Of a stretch of 64,000 nucleotides of DNA, positions 7,309 through 26,825 are shown piece after piece. Position 1 is the stretch's first letter, and every line of letters begins with the position of its first letter. The stretch lies in the NCBI GenBank assembly GCA_034416335.1, contig DAOULV010000018.1, positions 38,788 to 102,787 of the forward strand. The letters are read 5' to 3'. Source of the stretch: Dehalococcoidales bacterium (GTDB lineage: Bacteria > Chloroflexota > Dehalococcoidia > Dehalococcoidales > UBA2162). The notes under the pieces are model-generated. The model worked only from the letters and a program-made list of their open reading frames with translations, was not told where the DNA came from and made no database searches. The position numbers and the translations under genes were made by a program.

Positions 7309-8313
7309 ATGATGACGGATACATATAGCGGAATCTGGATTTACGCGGAGCAGAGAAACGGGAAGTTACTGGATTCGGGACCGGAACTGCTCGGTGAAGC
7401 CCGTAAAATAGCCGATAAACGAGGACAGGAACTGGCTGCAGTGGTAATGGGAAGCAAAATCGCCGGTCTTGCCGACGAGCTGGCGGCATACGGAGCGGAT
7501 AAAGTCTACGTTGCCGATTCTCCGGTTCTCGAAAACTACCGGTGCGAAGCTTACGCCCCGATACTCGAAGAAATGATAAACAAATACAAGCCGGAGGTTT
7601 TCGTTATCGGCGGAAGCAGTATCGGCATGGACCTTGCTCCCAGGGTTGCGGCAAAGGTGAATACGGGGCTTGCCGCTCATGCGGTAGGACTCGACGTTGA
7701 TGACAACGGATGCCTTAAAGCCTTTGTACCGTCATTCGGCGGCAGTATTATGGCATCGATTACCTGCGCGGTCCACCGGCCTCAGATGGCCACCATTCCT
7801 CCCGGATTTCTTCAGAAACCGGAGAAACAGGAAGGCAGGAAGACTGAGGTTGTAAACGTTGAAGTAAAGATAATCGAGAAAGACCTCAGCACCAGGGTGC
7901 TGGAAGTCAAAACAACCGAATCAAAGGTCAAGCCGTTGGAATCCGCCGAAACGGTTATCGCCGGTGGTTACGGTATCGGCAGCAAAGAGAACTGGAAGAT
8001 GGTGGAAGATCTCGCCGCATCAATCGGCGGCAGTGTGGGTGCGACCCGGCCGGCCTGCGACGAAGGCTGGGCGGTACAGGAAGAGCAGATGATAGGACAG
8101 AGCGGCAAGACCGTCCATCCAAACCTTTATATAGGCGTAGGCGTATCCGGTATTATCCATCACCTTATAGGAATTCAGGACTCCAAGAAAATCGTGGCAA
8201 TCAACCGGGACGCCGACGCCCCGATTATGAAAGCGGCCGACTATGCCATAGTTGCCGATTATAAGGAAGTAGTACCGGCGCTTATAGAGGAATTCAAGAA
8301 GCTGAAGGTATAG
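7309..8313 (+). CDS. etfA: Electron transfer flavoprotein alpha subunit
   Basis: 334 aa. The C-terminal FAD-binding signature GQSGKTVHPNLYIGVGVSG is present. Confidence 0.9.
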   Translation: MMTDTYSGIWIYAEQRNGKLLDSGPELLGEARKIADKRGQELAAVVMGSKIAGLADELAAYGADKVYVADSPVLENYRCEAYAPILEEMINKYKPEVFVIGGSSIGMDLAPRVAAKVNTGLAAHAVGLDVDDNGCLKAFVPSFGGSIMASITCAVHRPQMATIPPGFLQKPEKQEGRKTEVVNVEVKIIEKDLSTRVLEVKTTESKVKPLESAETVIAGGYGIGSKENWKMVEDLAASIGGSVGATRPACDEGWAVQEEQMIGQSGKTVHPNLYIGVGVSGIIHHLIGIQDSKKIVAINRDADAPIMKAADYAIVADYKEVVPALIEEFKKLKV

Positions 8314-8521
8314 TCTTCATCAGAAAATACAGAGGACTAAGAGGGGAGAGTATTTACTCTCCCCTTCGCTACATTCGCGGTGATACCTATTCGCATCCGT
8401 CGCCCTCAAAGAAGATAAAGAGGGGCATTTGCTCCTCTTTATAAAACCTCCCGGATCTTGATAACGATAATATAAACGTCATCACGAATCAGGTTAGAAG
8501 AATGGAGTATAATACTAACCT

Positions 8522-8695
8522 ATGGAACATAAAGAAGCAATGAATATCCTGCTGGAGCTTGTGAAAAAGGGGACGCTGACCGACAAGGAAAGAGAAGCGG
8601 TTACCACGGCAATCGGTATACTGAGCTGGACTACTCTTTCTAAGGGCGTGGTGAAAGCCCGGAAAGCTAAACGGGATAAGAGCCTGGAATGGTAA
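8522..8695 (+). CDS. Small hypothetical protein (57 aa)
   Basis: ATG-to-TAA ORF below the length cut-off of the supplied track (MEHKEAMNILLELVKKGTLTDKEREAV...). It sits in an otherwise empty gap. There is no family assignment. Confidence 0.3.
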   Translation: MEHKEAMNILLELVKKGTLTDKEREAVTTAIGILSWTTLSKGVVKARKAKRDKSLEW

Positions 8696-20394: not shown

Positions 20395-20500
20395 AGTGGC
20401 ATGGGCGGTTGCCAGAGCGAGTGAGGGGTCGAGGGAAGGAATTGATATAGATTGCTACACTTTCCGCCTCGGGCGGATTGACGCCGAGTCTCGCAATGAC
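20395..20500. repeat. REP-like element (tatagattgc...gacgccgagtctcgcaatgac family)
   Basis: Near-identical to segments at 26017-26070 and 26262-26320. Confidence 0.7.
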
Positions 20501-20540
20501 AGCGAGGGCAACCGGGCGACGCCGTGGAGGGCTTTTGATG

Positions 20541-21167
20541 CTATTTCCCGGTGTCGAAGAGCCAATAGAACCGGGTAAGAACACGGGAGGTAGTCTTAGC
20601 TCCTTCGAACCAGGCTCCCCGAAGAGCCTGGTTCATGATCCTGGTCCTGGCGTCAGCGGTATTATTCAGCATGGAGATATCAAGGCTGGCAAGGGAGCTT
20701 TCGAGCCGAACCCGCGCGGAATCGAGTATCTGAGCCTGTATGCGGAGTTTTTCGAGGGCTATACCGGCGCATCTTTTCATTTCCGCACCGCGGGTGTACG
20801 GGCAGATACCGAGCAGGTAATCACGAATGGCGAAGGTCTCGGTAGTGACGGATTTGCGTTTCGGATCGCCCCGGTAGAGGAACTTGAATTCGTCGAGGCG
20901 GGCGGGCAGCACCTGGCGGAGGAACTCGCAGGTTTCGGAATACCATCGCTGGTAGGATGAGGAGAAGCGGCCACAGCGGCGGTTCCTCAGGTTCCGACCG
21001 GCGAGAGTGTCTTCCATATCGAGGCAGAGGTCCCGTGAAACCTCCACCAGCCTGTCCAGGTCCGCCTGTAACTTATCGCTGTTCGGGAAGGAGATATCGC
21101 GGGAATCCTCGGCGATACGTTTCAGTAATTCAAACGATTTACGAAACTCAGTATTTTTAGCGTCCAT
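20541..21167 (-). CDS. Hypothetical protein
   Basis: 208 aa ORF with host-like GC. No motif recognised. It lies downstream of, and co-directional with, the AT-rich defence island. Confidence 0.5.
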   Translation of the reverse strand: MDAKNTEFRKSFELLKRIAEDSRDISFPNSDKLQADLDRLVEVSRDLCLDMEDTLAGRNLRNRRCGRFSSSYQRWYSETCEFLRQVLPARLDEFKFLYRGDPKRKSVTTETFAIRDYLLGICPYTRGAEMKRCAGIALEKLRIQAQILDSARVRLESSLASLDISMLNNTADARTRIMNQALRGAWFEGAKTTSRVLTRFYWLFDTGK

Positions 21168-21343
21168 AAGAATAATAATAAAGCAGCGGGTGAGGAAGGT
21201 AAAGAGAGTTGTGTCGTTTGGTGCAGTTGATAACCGGGAAGCGATAGGGATTCTTGGGAGAGGGTGGGGAATCTTTACCTAAAAGTGTAATTGAGGTTGG
21301 TTTAACGAAGAAAGCGATATTTTCGCACCTGAATCAAAAAAAG

Positions 21344-21709
21344 TTAAGATAATTTCTTCTTTAAATTATTCCAAGTCCACGCTACTACCTCTCCAGCACC
21401 TTCGATCCTCTGAGGATTATGTCTTTTCTCGCGAAGTTGGAATCTTCTTTTGTTCAATTGTCGAGCCATTTTGACTTCGCGCAATACACCAGTGGCTTGG
21501 TGTGTGTTTTCTCTTAATAGAACAACAAACACGTTGCAGTTATTAATCGCCTCTCTTGCTCTTTGTTGCCAATTTGGTATTCGACCTTCTAGTGACATAT
21601 CTTTTACAGAAAACGGTGAATCTTGTCGTTCGGATTGAGCAATAAAATTGTTTTTCATGTCTAGATCATGTTCGTAATCGAAACTCAAAAATACTTTGGT
21701 TTTTGACAT
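21344..21709 (-). CDS. TIR-like protein (DUF1863 / ThsB-like)
   Basis: Start taken at the internal ATG (MSKTKVFLSFDYEHD...). The FLSFDYE N-terminal strand, the NCNVFVVLL strand and the GVLREVKMA helix with a conserved Glu match the ThsB/MTH538 TIR-like pattern. AT-rich. Confidence 0.7.
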   Translation of the reverse strand: MSKTKVFLSFDYEHDLDMKNNFIAQSERQDSPFSVKDMSLEGRIPNWQQRAREAINNCNVFVVLLRENTHQATGVLREVKMARQLNKRRFQLREKRHNPQRIEGAGEVVAWTWNNLKKKLS

Positions 21710-21734
21710 CTTAATTAATGAATGATTAGTTAAT

Positions 21735-22628
21735 CTATGGGGTATCCCTCCTAGCTCTCCATTGTGTATGTTCTCTTGAAAATGCGTTTTCAGCATCACC
21801 TACAAATTTTGAAAATTCTTTTTCATCTTTGATTTCCGAATGCGCCGCTCGTACAATACTAATCTCATGGGCTGTAAAAATGTATGAAGTAGCCAAATCT
21901 TGAAAACGTTTTGCTTGTATCCAAGCTACAACAGATGCTGCTAATGTTGAGAATATACCTGTGGGGTAATATAGCCATTCAGGAACAAAGATTCTTATAA
22001 TAGCAGAAGATATCGCACATATCTGAAAAGCGATCATGACATAGAACCAAATATTGCCTCTATGTTTATTTTTAGAAGACGTGTTCGTATACCAAGCTCT
22101 TTGATGGTCAATTCTATTAGTAAGATAGATGTTTTTTCTTTGTTCAAAATCAAGTTCTCTGATATAATCCATAGATTCAGTTATTTGTTCACGGTCAGAA
22201 GAACCGTTATTGAAATATTTACAAATATCGCTTACTTCTCCGAGTATTCTTTTTAATTCGCTTAATAATAGTGCTCTTGCCGTATCATCATCATACGGTT
22301 CTGCTTTCATCATATATCTCCAGCAAATAGTTTTTATTGATTCAGTAGCAGACCTGGCAAGATACCACAATCTGTCATATCTTTTTAACACTAGTATATA
22401 AGAATATATAGGTACGATTAGCAGTATAGTAGCTGTGATTATAGACAAGGTTATTACATCACTAGGGAAGATAGAGAATATGGCTGCTAACGATAGTAAA
22501 ATCAGGATGGAACCTATCCCGATATAATGGTATCTTTGTGTAATCTTTGAAACATGACTAGTTTCTTTATATAAGGCTGGATATACTGAAGAATCTAATT
22601 TCAAATCATTCATGTTCATTCTTCTCAA
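21735..22628 (-). CDS. Double SLATT / DUF4231-like 4-TM membrane protein (putative effector)
   Basis: 297 aa. Two 2-TM hairpins (about aa 35-85 and 195-245) are each followed by an amphipathic helix (W..ARSATESIK..WRY and RFQDLATSYIFTAHEI). The start overlaps the upstream gene's stop (ATGAATGA). Alternative ATG starts at 22619 and 22613. Confidence 0.65.
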   Translation of the reverse strand: MRRMNMNDLKLDSSVYPALYKETSHVSKITQRYHYIGIGSILILLSLAAIFSIFPSDVITLSIITATILLIVPIYSYILVLKRYDRLWYLARSATESIKTICWRYMMKAEPYDDDTARALLLSELKRILGEVSDICKYFNNGSSDREQITESMDYIRELDFEQRKNIYLTNRIDHQRAWYTNTSSKNKHRGNIWFYVMIAFQICAISSAIIRIFVPEWLYYPTGIFSTLAASVVAWIQAKRFQDLATSYIFTAHEISIVRAAHSEIKDEKEFSKFVGDAENAFSREHTQWRARRDTP

Positions 22629-24738
22629 ATAATATTACATCATAATTTTCTTTTAATTCTGTAGAAGCCTTTTGGCGAAAACAGGAAATCACCTCATTGG
22701 CAAAATTGAACAAGGTTTTAGTTATTTCAGTACAGCTATATTCAGGAGAATATATAAATAGATCAGGAAAATTTACAGCGAGATATTCTAAAGGTGTGTG
22801 TAATAAGTTATGTGAAAAGCGTAACAGATCTGCTATCTTAACCATTGTTTCAAGTGTTCGCTCAGGTAATCTATAAAATGAGGGCGATTCGAAAATATTA
22901 AATATGTCTATTAAACATTCATCATATTTATTGGGAGTTTTCCCCATACAAAGAGCAACTCGCCTTATAATGCATGGAAGGCAATCTCCATCGTGAATAC
23001 CTTGATAATCAAAGATATCTAACCTCTTGGCTAATATTTTTACTCTAGAGTAGTTATAACATGAACTTGTAAATGGAATAATAACTCTAGATAATCTTTT
23101 GTTTGCAATATATTTAACGATTTGACCTTTAGTTTTATATTTATAAGGATTCGAGATTGAAATATTAAGGTCAAATACCGAATTTATAGTAGATTGATAC
23201 GTTTCAATGAATTTAGGGTGAACAGTATGGGTGTTTACATGAGATTCTGACATAAGTGGATTAATAGCTATGGGTCCATTCTCAAACATAAATATATTAG
23301 TATTTCCTACCTCGACTGAGACTGCATAAGCTATTGATAAATAAAAGAATGACCTTAAATGTTGGAGAAATAAATCTCTATGGTAACCTTTTAACTTATA
23401 GGAACCCTTCTTCTTCCTTGAAGGTTGCCAAGATACTTTCAAATGAGGTAGATCTGTATTCATTACATGGTTCATCTGGTCTAATAACCTTGTCTGAATC
23501 CCTGATAAATTACCGGAGGCATAACTAATTAGACTAGGTGAATATCCTTTACTTATTGCCCATATTATTCCAGCAGCGCTATCTATGCCGCCTGAAAATA
23601 GGCAACTGCATCCATTTTCCACTTTAGTGAATTTGATATTTTCAACTTTCGGTTCGTTATTAGCGGAAAAATATAGATTAATAGTATCTCTTGAGAGATA
23701 CGATATTGTTTTTGATAACGATGATTTTTGACTTTGCCAAATTTCCGGGTGACGAACTGGTATATATACATCAAGTTCTCGATAATAGTCAATATCCCTG
23801 TCTATGTATAAATCAGATATATATATAACAAAAGCTATCTCTAATAAATCACGCGTTAGGGAGTTTAAGGGGTGTCCTACGAAAGATTCAATATCTGATA
23901 AATCGAATGATACGTTTTTATCTTTGCCATTGAGGATTATTCTAATGGCGTTATCATCTACAATATAATCTTCGGAAAGTTTTTTTATAGGAATTTTCCC
24001 AACGATAACATTAATTCTAGTTTTTTGATTTCTTTTTCCTGAATTATCATCACGCCAACTAAGGAAAGGGAGTTTCTCCTTAAATCCAGTAGAAATTCGT
24101 TTAATTTTCGAGTTAATGCGACCTTTTGCTTGAGAATCAATGAAATATGGTACAAGTGATTTGGCTATATCATTACATTTACTAAATATAGCTTGTCTTA
24201 AAATATTTTGTTCATCTGTACTAACAAGTTTACCGTTAAGGAATTGGTATGAATATCCGAAATCCGTGCTGCCCTGAGATTTCCCACGAAGAATAGTCAT
24301 ACTTTGGTTAAAAAGAAAGTATGAAAGGAAAGTTTCAAATATAGTGGTTAGATTAATGTCTTTAGATAATGAATAAATCTCTTTAATAAACTGAATATTA
24401 CTAAAATTTTGTCCCTGTTTATCAGGGAATAATCTGGGGGAATCTAATAGTGTTAATGATATTGTTTGCTTAAAAGATCGTTCAATAATGTCACCAAGAG
24501 GAAATGTATATAGACTTGGATTATCTCTGGTAACGATATCATATATTAAATCGGAGAACGAATAAGGCTCGAGTTTAATTTCATCAGAGAAATCATCTTC
24601 ATTAACAAATGCAGAAAAACGTTCTTCGTGTAAACAGCGCAGTAAAGCATTTAAACTTACGGCACATATATATAATTTTTTGGAAGTATCATTTATCTTA
24701 TATGAAGCAAAAGCTTGTGTTAGCAAATAATCAATCAT
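22606..24738 (-). CDS. Large QueC-like PP-loop ATP-pyrophosphatase fusion protein (N-terminal ~290 aa unknown)
   Basis: 710 aa. PP-loop LFSGGIDS at aa 380-387 (plus 23578-23595). The pre-PP-loop segment DLLEIAFVIYISD..IPV is similar to QatC-type proteins. C-terminal Cys cluster C560/C586xxC589/C597. Confidence 0.7.
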   Translation of the reverse strand: MIDYLLTQAFASYKINDTSKKLYICAVSLNALLRCLHEERFSAFVNEDDFSDEIKLEPYSFSDLIYDIVTRDNPSLYTFPLGDIIERSFKQTISLTLLDSPRLFPDKQGQNFSNIQFIKEIYSLSKDINLTTIFETFLSYFLFNQSMTILRGKSQGSTDFGYSYQFLNGKLVSTDEQNILRQAIFSKCNDIAKSLVPYFIDSQAKGRINSKIKRISTGFKEKLPFLSWRDDNSGKRNQKTRINVIVGKIPIKKLSEDYIVDDNAIRIILNGKDKNVSFDLSDIESFVGHPLNSLTRDLLEIAFVIYISDLYIDRDIDYYRELDVYIPVRHPEIWQSQKSSLSKTISYLSRDTINLYFSANNEPKVENIKFTKVENGCSCLFSGGIDSAAGIIWAISKGYSPSLISYASGNLSGIQTRLLDQMNHVMNTDLPHLKVSWQPSRKKKGSYKLKGYHRDLFLQHLRSFFYLSIAYAVSVEVGNTNIFMFENGPIAINPLMSESHVNTHTVHPKFIETYQSTINSVFDLNISISNPYKYKTKGQIVKYIANKRLSRVIIPFTSSCYNYSRVKILAKRLDIFDYQGIHDGDCLPCIIRRVALCMGKTPNKYDECLIDIFNIFESPSFYRLPERTLETMVKIADLLRFSHNLLHTPLEYLAVNFPDLFIYSPEYSCTEITKTLFNFANEVISCFRQKASTELKENYDVILFEKNEHE

Positions 24739-24780
24739 AAGGCAATCCTAAAATATTGAAAATGGATTATCGGGGTATGT

Positions 24781-25389
24781 CTAGCCACTTACTCCACGCC
24801 TTCTCTCAATTTGTTTTGTCCTTTTACTTAAGACTTTAGCAAATTCTGCATCGGGGTCTTCTAACCAATCTTGTAAAGCAGCAAAGTCAGGATTGTAAGC
24901 GATGTCTTCTTGCCACGATTCCTGTGTAGTAAAAGGACCTTCGGAAGCTAGTTTATAGTATTCACTTATTGTATTTTCCGAATTTGATTTGGGTTTTCTT
25001 ATAGCATTGACTATATTCTTAGTATTCCATTTTACCTGGTGGTTAAAAACCTGTAGTTCTCGTGGTAGTCTTTGCGATCCATGTGGACTTACTACAATTA
25101 TGTTTTTATCCATCTCAAGTGCAATTTCTATTTCTTTATGAATCCATTTACGATGTTTGGTATACATACCAGCGATAATTAAAACAGATTTAGCAGGACG
25201 TATTTGCCTTCTTAAAGAAGCTTCGAGTTGTGATTCACTCTTCCTAGCGAACCTACGATCTTGGGGGACACTATAATTCCGAAATTTAAAACGCTTGTGA
25301 TCTGATAACAATTCAGAAAGGCGTTCGTAATCACTACTACGACTCCATACATGACTTATGAAAATAGGATAACTTTTTAACTTTGGCAT
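24781..25389 (-). CDS. TIR-like protein (DUF1863 / ThsB-like) with C-terminal extension
   Basis: 202 aa. YPIFISHVW..DY N-terminal strand, the SVLIIAG strand, and WIHKEIEIA with a conserved Glu. First gene of the operon. Confidence 0.7.
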   Translation of the reverse strand: MPKLKSYPIFISHVWSRSSDYERLSELLSDHKRFKFRNYSVPQDRRFARKSESQLEASLRRQIRPAKSVLIIAGMYTKHRKWIHKEIEIALEMDKNIIVVSPHGSQRLPRELQVFNHQVKWNTKNIVNAIRKPKSNSENTISEYYKLASEGPFTTQESWQEDIAYNPDFAALQDWLEDPDAEFAKVLSKRTKQIERRRGVSG

Positions 25390-25418
25390 ATAATATTCTT
25401 GTATGATTATTTATGGGA

Positions 25419-25447
25419 ATAATAATGCTCATATACAAATTTGTCAA
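25419..25447 (-). promoter_or_regulatory. Sigma70-type promoter of the TIR/QueC-like/SLATT/TIR operon
   Basis: The minus strand reads TTGACA (25447-25442), a 17-nt spacer, then TATTAT (25424-25419). This is about 30 nt upstream of the ATG at 25389. Confidence 0.45.
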
Positions 25448-25754
25448 CATATTAAAATAGTCGCGTACTTAAGAGATAAATTGCTAACCGGTTTGGAATA
25501 ACGGCTAACATTCTACGGACATTCATACACGAAATACAAGTCAGTAATGATCTGACCGTTATCAACCCATCCCTTTTCCGTCTCTCCCGATTTTCATGCG
25601 GGATATGGTCTTTCCCTTGATAAGGGAAGGGAGAGACTTACAAATAGAACTCGTATTTAGTTGCGGCGATTACTGTTATTATAATTCCGTTCGCCCCCGT
25701 ATCAAGTACGGGGCAGGTTCTGAGCTTGTCGAAGGGCGCCGTTGTGGTTCGACA

Positions 25755-25912
25755 GGCTCACCACGAACGGCTGACTATGGACGGCTCACCACGAATGGCT
25801 AACTATGGACGGTTCATCACGAACGGCTAACTATGGACGGCTCACCACGAACGGCTAACTATGGACGGTTCATCACGAACGGCTGACTATGGACGGTTCA
25901 TCACGAACGGCT
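25755..25912. repeat. 28-bp tandem repeat, about 5.6 copies
   Basis: ggctcaccacgaacggctRactatggac repeats with an exact 28-bp period (unit starts at 25755, 25783, 25811, 25839, 25867, 25895). There are no spacers. Confidence 0.9.
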
Positions 25913-26009
25913 TGATTATCATACTTTTCTGTGCAACCAGGTACTCGTGCCGGTAAAATTCCACTTATTGATGGTATGGGGCGGTCGCCAGGGCAAGCAA
26001 GAGGTCGAG

Positions 26010-26445
26010 GGAAGGAATTTATATAGATTGCCACGTCTCGGCTATTGACGCCGAGTCTCGCAATGACAGTGGGGAACGGATTGGCATCCGCCTGCGGCGG
26101 ACCTGTTGACGGCGGACCTCGCAATGACCCGCCTATGCCAACCCACCTACGTTAAAACTTCGGCGGACAAGGGCTTCGGCGGGCAGGCAGGAGATGGGTT
26201 CATCCTTCGACAAGCTCAGGACGAACGGGATAAAGTGTAGTCTCGCAATGACTTGAGGGTGTTATTTATAGAGATTGCCACGTCTCGGCTATTGACGCCG
26301 AGTCTCGCAATGACAGTGGGGAACGGATTGGCATCCGCCTGCGGCGGACCTGTTGGCGGCGGACCTCGCAATGACCCGCCTGCGTCAGGGCTTCGGCGGG
26401 CAGGCAGGAGATGGGTTCATCCTTCGACAGGCTCAGGACGAACGG
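26010..26445. repeat. Segmental duplication of composite REP elements (about 115 bp core x2)
   Basis: 26017-26135 and 26262-26385 are near-identical (tatagattgccacgtctcggctattgacgccgagtctcgcaatgacagtggggaacgg...). Both are followed by gggcttcggcgggcaggcaggagatgggttcatccttcgaca. Confidence 0.85.
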
Positions 26446-26825
26446 GAGAGGGTCAGGGTGAGGGGGCTAGGCGCAAATCGTTACTTTTCACCCTCACCTA
26501 ACCTCTCCCGTCAAGGGAGAGGAATGTCCTGATTGATATTAAGTGATGTTGATCGGAGGTTTCTTATCAAGGGAGAGGGTCAGGGTGAGGGGGCTAGGCG
26601 CAAATCGTTGTTTTTCACCCTCACCTAACCTCTCCCGTCAAGGGAGAGGAATATCCTGGTCGATATTAAGAGATGTTAATCAGAGGTTTTTTATCAAGGG
26701 AGAGGGTCAGGGTGAGGGGCTAGGCGCAAATCGTTACTTTTCACCCTCACCTAACCTCTCCCGTCAAGGGAGAGGAATGACTTGATCAATAGAGGGAGAG
26801 GAATATCCTGATAGATATTCGAGTT
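26444..26825. repeat. 127-bp tandem repeat x3, each unit a nested hairpin element
   Basis: gggagagggtcagggtgaggg starts at 26444, 26571 and 26698. Each unit contains the palindromes gggtgaggg..caccctcacc and cctctcccgtcaagggagagg. Confidence 0.9.

Follow-up and report, generated by a model that had tools for sequence, protein, structure and literature searches.

How a double-SLATT membrane protein with no fused ligand-binding domain receives the signal of its TIR partners is the question raised by a four-gene operon of a Dehalococcoidales bacterium (GenBank assembly GCA_034416335.1, contig DAOULV010000018.1, positions 38,788 to 102,787; this whole stretch of 64,000 nucleotides is referred to as the window). 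A first-pass annotation of the DNA had proposed as receptor either the cytoplasmic helices of the SLATT protein itself or one of two neighbouring products, a giant QueC-like protein and a second TIR-like protein. The evidence presented here points to the first of these. The SLATT protein is probably a Thoeris effector of the ThsH family that senses the TIR signal itself, and the giant is probably an accessory enzyme of the first TIR protein (TIR1). Four genes are tightly packed here, the SLATT gene being the third, and its annotated position in a TIR operon, with TIR1 upstream and TIR2 downstream, stands.

24781 to 25389, reverse strand: TIR1, a ThsB-type TIR protein of 202 residues (Pfam ThsB_TIR, E 1.9e-17)
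22606 to 24738, reverse strand: the QatC-like giant, 710 residues, QueC family
21735 to 22613, reverse strand: the double-SLATT (ThsH-like) effector gene, 292 residues, product 100% identical to P0001
21344 to 21709, reverse strand: TIR2, a short ThsB-like TIR protein of 121 residues (Pfam ThsB_TIR, E 2.3e-5)

The open reading frame (ORF) at 21735–22628 on the reverse strand was confirmed, and the TTG at 22628 marks only its maximum extent. In all likelihood translation begins at the ATG at 22613, giving 292 residues: this codon fits the N termini of homologues, two independent gene calls chose it, and it overlaps with the stop of the giant gene upstream (ATGAATGA). For TIR2 the start is at 21709 and not at the GTG at 21799. 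Residue numbers of the SLATT protein are counted from the ATG at 22619.

22134 to 22580, reverse strand: SLATT_3 domain, residues 14–162 (Pfam, NCBIfam)
22464 to 22526, reverse strand: transmembrane helix 1 (TM1), within SLATT_3
22383 to 22454, reverse strand: TM2, within SLATT_3
22311 to 22379, reverse strand: conserved amphipathic helix H81–103, motif WYxARxxxESxKTxxWRY, within SLATT_3
21759 to 22127, reverse strand: SLATT_1 domain, residues 165–287 (Pfam, NCBIfam)
21987 to 22055, reverse strand: TM3, within SLATT_1
21909 to 21962, reverse strand: TM4, within SLATT_1
21747 to 21824, reverse strand: near-invariant C-terminal helix H266–291, motif FVGDAENAFSREHTQW, in the SLATT_1 half

The double-SLATT architecture of two tandem hairpins and four TM helices, as first annotated, was borne out by domain models scoring above their cut-offs, by hydropathy, and by an AlphaFold2 (AF2) model. 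Pfam SLATT_3 (PF18184) matched with E 4.7e-26 and 92.3 bits and SLATT_1 (PF18181) with E 2.5e-36 and 124.8 bits, each against a gathering cut-off of 26.3, and DUF4231 with E 2e-15 and 57.4 bits (cut-off 24.7). The NCBIfam models gave 133 bits for SLATT_1 (cut-off 41) and 125 bits for SLATT_3 (cut-off 45), so that support from hidden Markov models for SLATT/DUF4231 lies far above the curated cut-offs. Beyond SLATT/DUF4231, no further family was matched in the Pfam and NCBIfam scans, which upholds the description of the protein as stand-alone; no model of PADLOC 2.0 matches it. By hydropathy, one hairpin comprises TM1 (residues 32–52) and TM2 (56–79) and the other TM3 (189–211) and TM4 (220–237). 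The periplasmic loops have 3–8 residues, and the parts rich in Lys and Arg lie on the N-terminal, central, and C-terminal side; because the outer loops are so short and the other segments so basic, all soluble parts are predicted to be cytoplasmic. The AF2 model, derived from 117 homologues, is all-helical (mean pLDDT 93.8, pTM 0.87), and its helices match the hydropathy layout. A search of solved structures with the SLATT sequence profile gave nothing better than E 0.36, and Foldseek with the model gave no match at E 0.001 or below (best E 0.056, TM-scores of 0.24 or less).

Each hairpin had been described as followed by a conserved amphipathic helix. Both helices are indeed conserved; the amphipathic character is clear for H81–103 (mean column conservation 0.74, hydrophobic moment 0.43) and only moderate for H266–291 (0.83 and 0.26, respectively). 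Column conservation in the TM helices is 0.44–0.46. The family has 25 columns that are invariant in 117 sequences, the giant-linked clade included, and nearly all of them lie in cytoplasmic helices: W85, Y86, R89, T97, W100, and R101 after TM2; Y165, R169, Q173, W176, and Y177 in the helix leading into TM3; and E277–W287 (ENAFSREHTQW) in the C-terminal helix. They are almost all aromatic, Arg, or His, and none differs in the SLATT protein of the window or in the clade closest to it. Because invariant aromatic, Arg, and His columns sit in cytoplasmic helices, the pattern supports a putative nucleotide pocket on the cytoplasmic face of the protein, for which these residues provide a concrete mutagenesis map.

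The family to which the protein belongs is large. A protein search with the SLATT sequence gave 427 matches, and a scan of 185,579 species genomes gave 379 relatives across many phyla, among which the architecture of SLATT_3 followed by SLATT_1 in about 290 residues is abundant. ORFs were called in 80 loci of the 379 relatives, and the gene directly upstream on the same strand encodes a ThsB_TIR protein in 59 of 68 cases, the gene downstream a TIR protein in ~15 of 38. A ThsB TIR is the usual sole partner. Members of the family typically have no sensor domain, and a widespread Thoeris type is normally built in this way, with a sensor-less double SLATT beside TIRs. In Paraburkholderia sp. UYCP14C (L062, 4815–6923), a 703-residue protein with DUF4062 and TPR, not a small TIR, is encoded upstream of a double SLATT, which may represent another wiring of the same effector.

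Coupling of TIR and SLATT proteins, with SLATT gated by an ADP-ribose (ADPR) derivative, was predicted earlier by Aravind's group (PMC9503650). Type VII Thoeris consists of a TIR protein and a SLATT effector, ThsH (Yirmiya et al., bioRxiv 10.64898/2025.12.03.692087, December 2025). In the same work, type VII TIRs were reported to produce canonical cyclic ADP-ribose (cADPR) on infection, external cADPR was toxic only to cells with the two-gene TIR and SLATT system, and an AlphaFold3 oligomer model placed positively charged pockets between SLATT protomers, at their cytoplasmic parts. We compared the validated ThsB sequences of Table S1 of that preprint with the TIRs of the related loci. The TIRs encoded upstream of double-SLATT genes are 86% identical to the Alteromonadales ThsB in L035, 72% to the Bacillus PvP124 ThsB in L009, and 64% to the Pseudohongiella ThsB in L039, and the SLATT proteins of these three loci are 36–44% identical to that of the window. 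With validated type VII TIRs 64–86% identical to the TIRs of related loci, the window protein is therefore taken as a ThsH-like family member, a probable assignment made through the validated TIR partners and synteny. The wiring does differ from that of Thoeris types I and II, as the first-pass annotation had proposed, but it is no longer new, having been named type VII Thoeris in December 2025.

Since two-gene systems with TIR and SLATT alone respond to cADPR, the SLATT protein itself is the likely receptor; its cytoplasmic helices appear to be the best supported of the annotated options in view of TIR synteny, these two-gene systems, and helix conservation. The two TIR proteins of the operon, for their part, look like signal producers. 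The TIR domain of TIR1 (residues 8–132) has an invariant catalytic-type Glu86 in KWIHKEIE (KWIxKEI), and the protein is 37% identical to the Pseudohongiella type VII ThsB (E 5e-22 to 5e-23) and 42% identical to the type IV TIR of Escherichia coli 328. TIR2 has a conserved, invariant Glu78 (VLREVKM) and resembles type IV and Bacillus type VII TIRs (E ~5e-11; type IV TIR of Pseudomonas sp. 1-7, E 4e-11). A relationship to the Alteromonadales type VII TIR was rejected as weak (E 0.013), the Pseudomonas type IV and Bacillus type VII proteins fitting better. Orthologues of TIR2 with 71–73% identity come after the SLATT gene in three loci (L003, L004, and L005), and multiple ThsB genes are common in double-SLATT loci. 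Because both TIRs keep the Glu of the catalytic position, TIR2 is best read as a second ThsB and a second signal producer, which speaks against its annotation as a candidate receptor.

The remaining candidate, the giant, has the following parts.

24073 to 24738, reverse strand: N-terminal all-helical domain, residues 1–222
22609 to 24021, reverse strand: QatC-like part, residues 240–710
23578 to 23595, reverse strand: PP-loop motif SGGIDS
23215 to 23235, reverse strand: QatC-type NTxTxHP motif
22972 to 22995, reverse strand: HDGDCLPC, which together with C560 makes up the Zn site

The giant matches PADLOC QatC with E 3e-45 and the PDB entry of QatC, 9vlk, with E 9e-50 over residues 296–600; with the NCBIfam QatC model NF041925 it scores 172 bits, under the cut-off of 280, and is thus not a QatC equivalog. 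The best Foldseek match is 9y01_B, the QatC chain of the QatB-QatC complex (E 7e-14, TMt 0.73), and QueC and Cap9 are far weaker matches. The residues S382–S387 (SGGxDS), C560, C586, and C589, and T503 and T505 are invariant in 21 members of the giant family, in alignment with the motifs of QatC. The TxT motif of QatC stands in for the Tyr and Asp that read the nucleobase in QueC and Cap9 (PMC13279940). The 222-residue N-domain has a confident helical model and no fold match. A QatB-QatC fusion was considered, the N-domain being all-helical like QatB, but was rejected: hhalign against 13 QatB sequences gave 10% probability, and QatB chains were absent among the Foldseek PDB matches of the giant.

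With 29 proteins in 5.8 billion, the giants form a rare family. Scanning metagenomes with the giant profile gave mostly ordinary QatC from QatABCD loci, with only L087 informative, and a scan of viral contigs gave ordinary QatC only and no giants. All nine giants with at least 34% identity and readable upstream DNA come after a TIR protein of ~200 residues (the window, L004, L153, L154, L155, L199, L200, L201, and the P0136 contig from JGI metagenome 3300075153). The pair of TIR and giant occurs with a SLATT gene in the window, L004, L154, L201, L087, and L153. It also occurs without one: in L155 (2653–8308; Dehalococcoides mccartyi CM137044.1), L199 (2458–7121), and the P0136 contig, the tail-bearing TIR and giant directly follow genes for a TIR of 128 residues, a Peptidase_C14 protein of 316 residues, and a product of 161–169 residues, an arrangement like type IV Thoeris, and in L200 the pair is followed only by an ASCH protein. 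The giant module is thus common to two effector classes.

These giant loci showed some further variation. Small ASCH-domain proteins (Pfam ASCH, E ~3e-5 to 6e-5) recur beside giants in SLATT-less loci (L155, 7880–8308; L200, 3068–3475; L156, 4815–5600; and L088). In L153, where the giant is 50% identical to that of the window, a single SLATT_1/DUF4231 protein of 158 residues (8218–8694) replaces the double SLATT. In L003/L008, on contig DAOUMS010000016.1 of a Dehalococcoidales metagenome-assembled genome (MAG), SLATT and TIR2 genes lie beside a phage-type integrase gene with no giant immediately upstream; elsewhere this 153-kb contig encodes a tail-bearing TIR (P0151) and a giant of 518 residues (P0135), and the operon may have been split by a mobile element.

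The feature that varies together with the giant lies on the TIR protein.

24784 to 24993, reverse strand: C-terminal extension of TIR1, residues 133–202, ending in ERRRGVSG-COOH (24784 to 24807)

Giant-associated TIRs have a C-terminal extension of ~70 residues with an acidic SPDFxALQxW(L/I)xDPD motif, and all 13 end in RR[RG]G-x-[SH]-G-COOH (the window, L004, L153, L154, L155, L199, L200, L201, and P0151–P0155). The tail was found in none of ~30 TIR1-like TIRs from two-gene loci, which end directly behind the TIR domain. When the tail by itself was searched against 1.84 billion representatives, it gave one true match, another TIR of 202 residues, together with repetitive-protein noise, and was not found on other protein families there. 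Because the pair with the tail-bearing TIR recurs with either SLATT or caspase-like modules, the giant appears to behave as a portable ThsB accessory and is best read as such rather than as the receptor of the SLATT protein; this travel with the tail-bearing TIR, also into SLATT-less caspase-type operons, goes against the annotated alternative of a receptor role. What stands out is a rare QatC-like enzyme that is coupled strictly to a TIR with a ubiquitin-like, Gly-ended tail, the pair being reused with two effector classes.

On phage infection, TIR1 and probably TIR2 would turn NAD+ into a signal of the cyclic ADP-ribose type, with canonical cADPR as the best guess. The signal would bind the SLATT protein directly at its cytoplasmic juxtamembrane helices, namely H81–103, the helix ahead of TM3, and the FVGDAENAFSREHTQW helix at the C terminus, all rich in invariant Trp, Tyr, Arg, and His. 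Binding would lead to oligomerisation of the SLATT protein, and its four-TM hairpins would breach the inner membrane, steps that we infer from the model of the preprint and from the role of SLATT proteins in cyclic-oligonucleotide-based anti-phage signalling systems (CBASS). Cell death or growth arrest would then precede phage release (abortive infection). The giant would act as an ATP-dependent PP-loop accessory on or with TIR1, most likely through the RRRGxSG-COOH extension, and would prime or regulate signal production.

This role of the giant is proposed because QatC and Cap9 act on the termini of their partners and because Cap2 adenylates the C-terminal glycines of the cGAS/DncV-like nucleotidyltransferase (CD-NTase). 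QatC and Cap9 keep the terminal tail of the partner in the active site (PMC13279940). The specific proposal that the enzyme recognises the TIR tail and activates or conjugates it in an ATP-dependent manner, as a portable priming or regulatory layer of Thoeris, is tentative, and we would not be surprised to see it fail. Speculatively, the carboxylate of the C-terminal Gly might be adenylated in place of the carboxylate of CDG (7-carboxy-7-deazaguanine) used by QueC and Cap9. If the giant does act on the TIR tail, it would be a previously undescribed layer for SLATT or caspase-like effectors and might hint at the role of canonical QatC, whose reaction was left unresolved by three structural papers on QatBC. 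The operon is a tractable system both for the regulation of Thoeris TIRs and for the QatC-type reaction.

Several points weigh against the reading of the SLATT protein as a direct sensor with the giant as a TIR1 accessory. The tie to validated ThsH runs only through TIR partners and synteny, and the locus is known here from sequence and predicted models. TIR1 is slightly closer to the type IV TIR (42%, N7-cADPR) than to the type VII TIR (37%, cADPR), and for this reason the signal could be another ADPR isomer. For every SLATT protein, pore formation is at the stage of a model, and the profile and Foldseek searches found no solved SLATT structure with which to compare it. The SLATT clade of the window always carries the giant, which may therefore be needed for SLATT activation. 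No protein of the operon has the N-terminal Gly motif of Cap9 and QatC substrates. The giant loci are few.

Some of these points would fit a different scheme in which the giant is the true sensor or converter, binding or ATP-dependently modifying the TIR product and relaying a modified ligand or a protein signal to a SLATT protein that cannot respond to the raw product. The giant gene does lie between those of TIR1 and SLATT, and the overlap of its stop with the SLATT start suggests translational coupling; every SLATT relative with at least 46% identity and known context is giant-linked; and the giant offers an uncharacterised helical N-domain of 222 residues with no fold match and a QatC-type chemistry that is unresolved. 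We nevertheless regard this scheme as unlikely, since the giant and tail-bearing TIR also pair without SLATT, with caspase-like effectors or ASCH proteins as neighbours, it is the TIR tail and nothing on SLATT that co-varies with the giant, the family-invariant cytoplasmic SLATT residues are unaltered in the giant-linked clade, and two-gene systems function with SLATT alone.

A further objection would be that the cassette is a decaying or inactive remnant of horizontal acquisition in which the SLATT protein is currently functionless. It is an isolated, repeat-bracketed low-GC island of 4.2 kb in a non-defence neighbourhood, and related loci are truncated (a single SLATT in L153, a giant of 609 residues in L155, and SLATT and TIR2 beside an integrase in L003). 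The four ORFs are intact, however, with every family-invariant residue kept; the genes are tightly spaced or overlapping downstream of a promoter-like site; and a second, independent assembly (L002) has an identical cassette, all of which makes decay improbable. Least probable of all is that the SLATT protein serves only as a membrane anchor or scaffold for a TIR-giant complex, with the TIRs' depletion of NAD+ or the product of the giant as the source of toxicity. That this SLATT family has neither a solved structure nor direct pore evidence would allow it, as would the presence of two TIRs with a catalytic Glu. The killing of type VII cells by external cADPR argues instead for a signal-activated effector, SLATT proteins are effectors in CBASS and DRT10, and conservation centres on pocket-like helices of the cytoplasmic side, not on a docking surface that only the giant clade has.

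The probable ThsH-like effector and its accessory can be set against several known systems. As in type VII Thoeris, an effector of ~290 residues from the SLATT_3 and SLATT_1 family stands beside ThsB-type TIRs with no separate sensor domain, and TIR1 falls in the TIR cluster of the Pseudohongiella ThsB. Type VII Thoeris is a two-gene operon, whereas the window has four genes, with the 710-residue QatC-like gene between TIR1 and SLATT, a 70-residue Gly-ended C-terminal extension added to TIR1, and a second TIR after SLATT; its SLATT protein is only 36–44% identical to members beside near-validated TIRs. The SLATT effector and its direct-sensing wiring are already known from the type VII preprint, and the four-gene arrangement is the new part. 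Our search of the literature found no paper describing a QatC-like protein in a TIR/SLATT operon. Type IV Thoeris, which consists of a TIR and a caspase-like protease, has TIRs related to TIR1 and TIR2, and the tail-bearing TIR and giant lie beside TIR and Peptidase_C14 genes in L155 and L199; the window has no caspase-like gene, and its effector is SLATT.

The giant matches QatC of QatABCD over residues 240–710 in sequence and fold, including the QatC-specific N-terminal and C-terminal extensions, and has the SGGxDS motif, the Zn cysteines, and the TxT motif (PMC13279940, PMC13376578). It differs in its extra 222-residue N-domain and in its TIR and SLATT partners: neither QatA (KAP NTPase), QatB (N-terminal MGTS), nor QatD (TatD) was found in the cassette with Pfam and PADLOC, and none of its proteins begins with MGTS, whereas canonical QatB with MGTS was recovered from control loci. 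Type IV CBASS with Cap9, Cap10, and Cap11 also places an ancillary QueC-family enzyme in a nucleotide-signalling operon, where it is presumed to modify a terminus of the signalling enzyme. The enzyme of the window is QatC-like and not Cap9-like, with no Cap10 resembling tRNA-guanine transglycosylase and no Cap11; and while Cap9/10/11 systems use an N-terminal Gly, the conserved terminal feature of the TIR is C-terminal (RRRGxSG), the N termini of TIR1 (MPKLK), TIR2 (MSKTK), and SLATT (MNDLK) having no N-terminal Gly. Type II CBASS with Cap2 and Cap3 is similar in that a Gly-ended C-terminal tail of the signalling enzyme strictly co-occurs with an ATP-dependent accessory; here, the cassette has no E1/E2 (Cap2) or JAB (Cap3) gene, and the accessory is a PP-loop protein of the QueC family. 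Thoeris operons with cap2/cap3 and with cap9/10/11 have been noted (bioRxiv 10.64898/2025.12.03.692087). Sensor-less TM SLATT effectors are found also in CBASS (2TM and 4TM SLATT) and in DRT10/UG17 (SLATT_5) (bioRxiv 10.64898/2026.04.29.721553), but these belong to other subfamilies and receive their signals from a CD-NTase or as reverse-transcriptase cDNA.

The surroundings of the operon are as follows.

21250 to 25500, no strand: low-GC island (0.29–0.39 as against ~0.5 in the flanks), coinciding with the four-gene cassette of 4.2 kb
25419 to 25447, reverse strand: promoter-like site TTGACA-17-TATTAT, 30 nucleotides upstream of the TIR1 start (consensus match only)
20403 to 20507, forward strand: left copy of a direct repeat of ~105 nucleotides, which with the right copy brackets the cassette and ORF208
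25979 to 26074, forward strand: right copy of this repeat, with a partial third copy at 26291 to 26321
20541 to 21167, reverse strand: ORF208, 208 residues, high GC, between the left repeat and the cassette, with homologues only in the same genome

MAG GCA_964464295.1 and an independent Logan assembly contain the identical four-gene cassette as well. The 26-mer core of the direct repeat occurs only at the three places listed in the 64-kb window, and the repeat may have been left behind by insertion or recombination. Repeats crowd the intergenic region upstream of the operon, with a 28-bp tandem repeat in 5.6 copies (25755–25912), a 127-bp tandem repeat in 2.6 copies (26444–26778), and a 118-nucleotide pair with 98% identity (26017–26134 and 26264–26381). 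ORF208 was rejected as a fifth gene of the cassette in view of its high GC, its homologues being confined to the same genome, and its lack of a family match in Pfam, PADLOC, or NCBIfam, and is possibly no gene at all. It is unrelated to a protein of 196 residues, absent from the window, that is encoded after TIR2 in L004 (9262–9852) and L005 (1690–2280) and in part in L087 (2921–3067). In the latter protein a TM helix at the N terminus is combined with a C-terminal region that is HEPN-like (RiboL-PSP HEPN, E 5e-4) and has the Rx4H motif RNKMAH.

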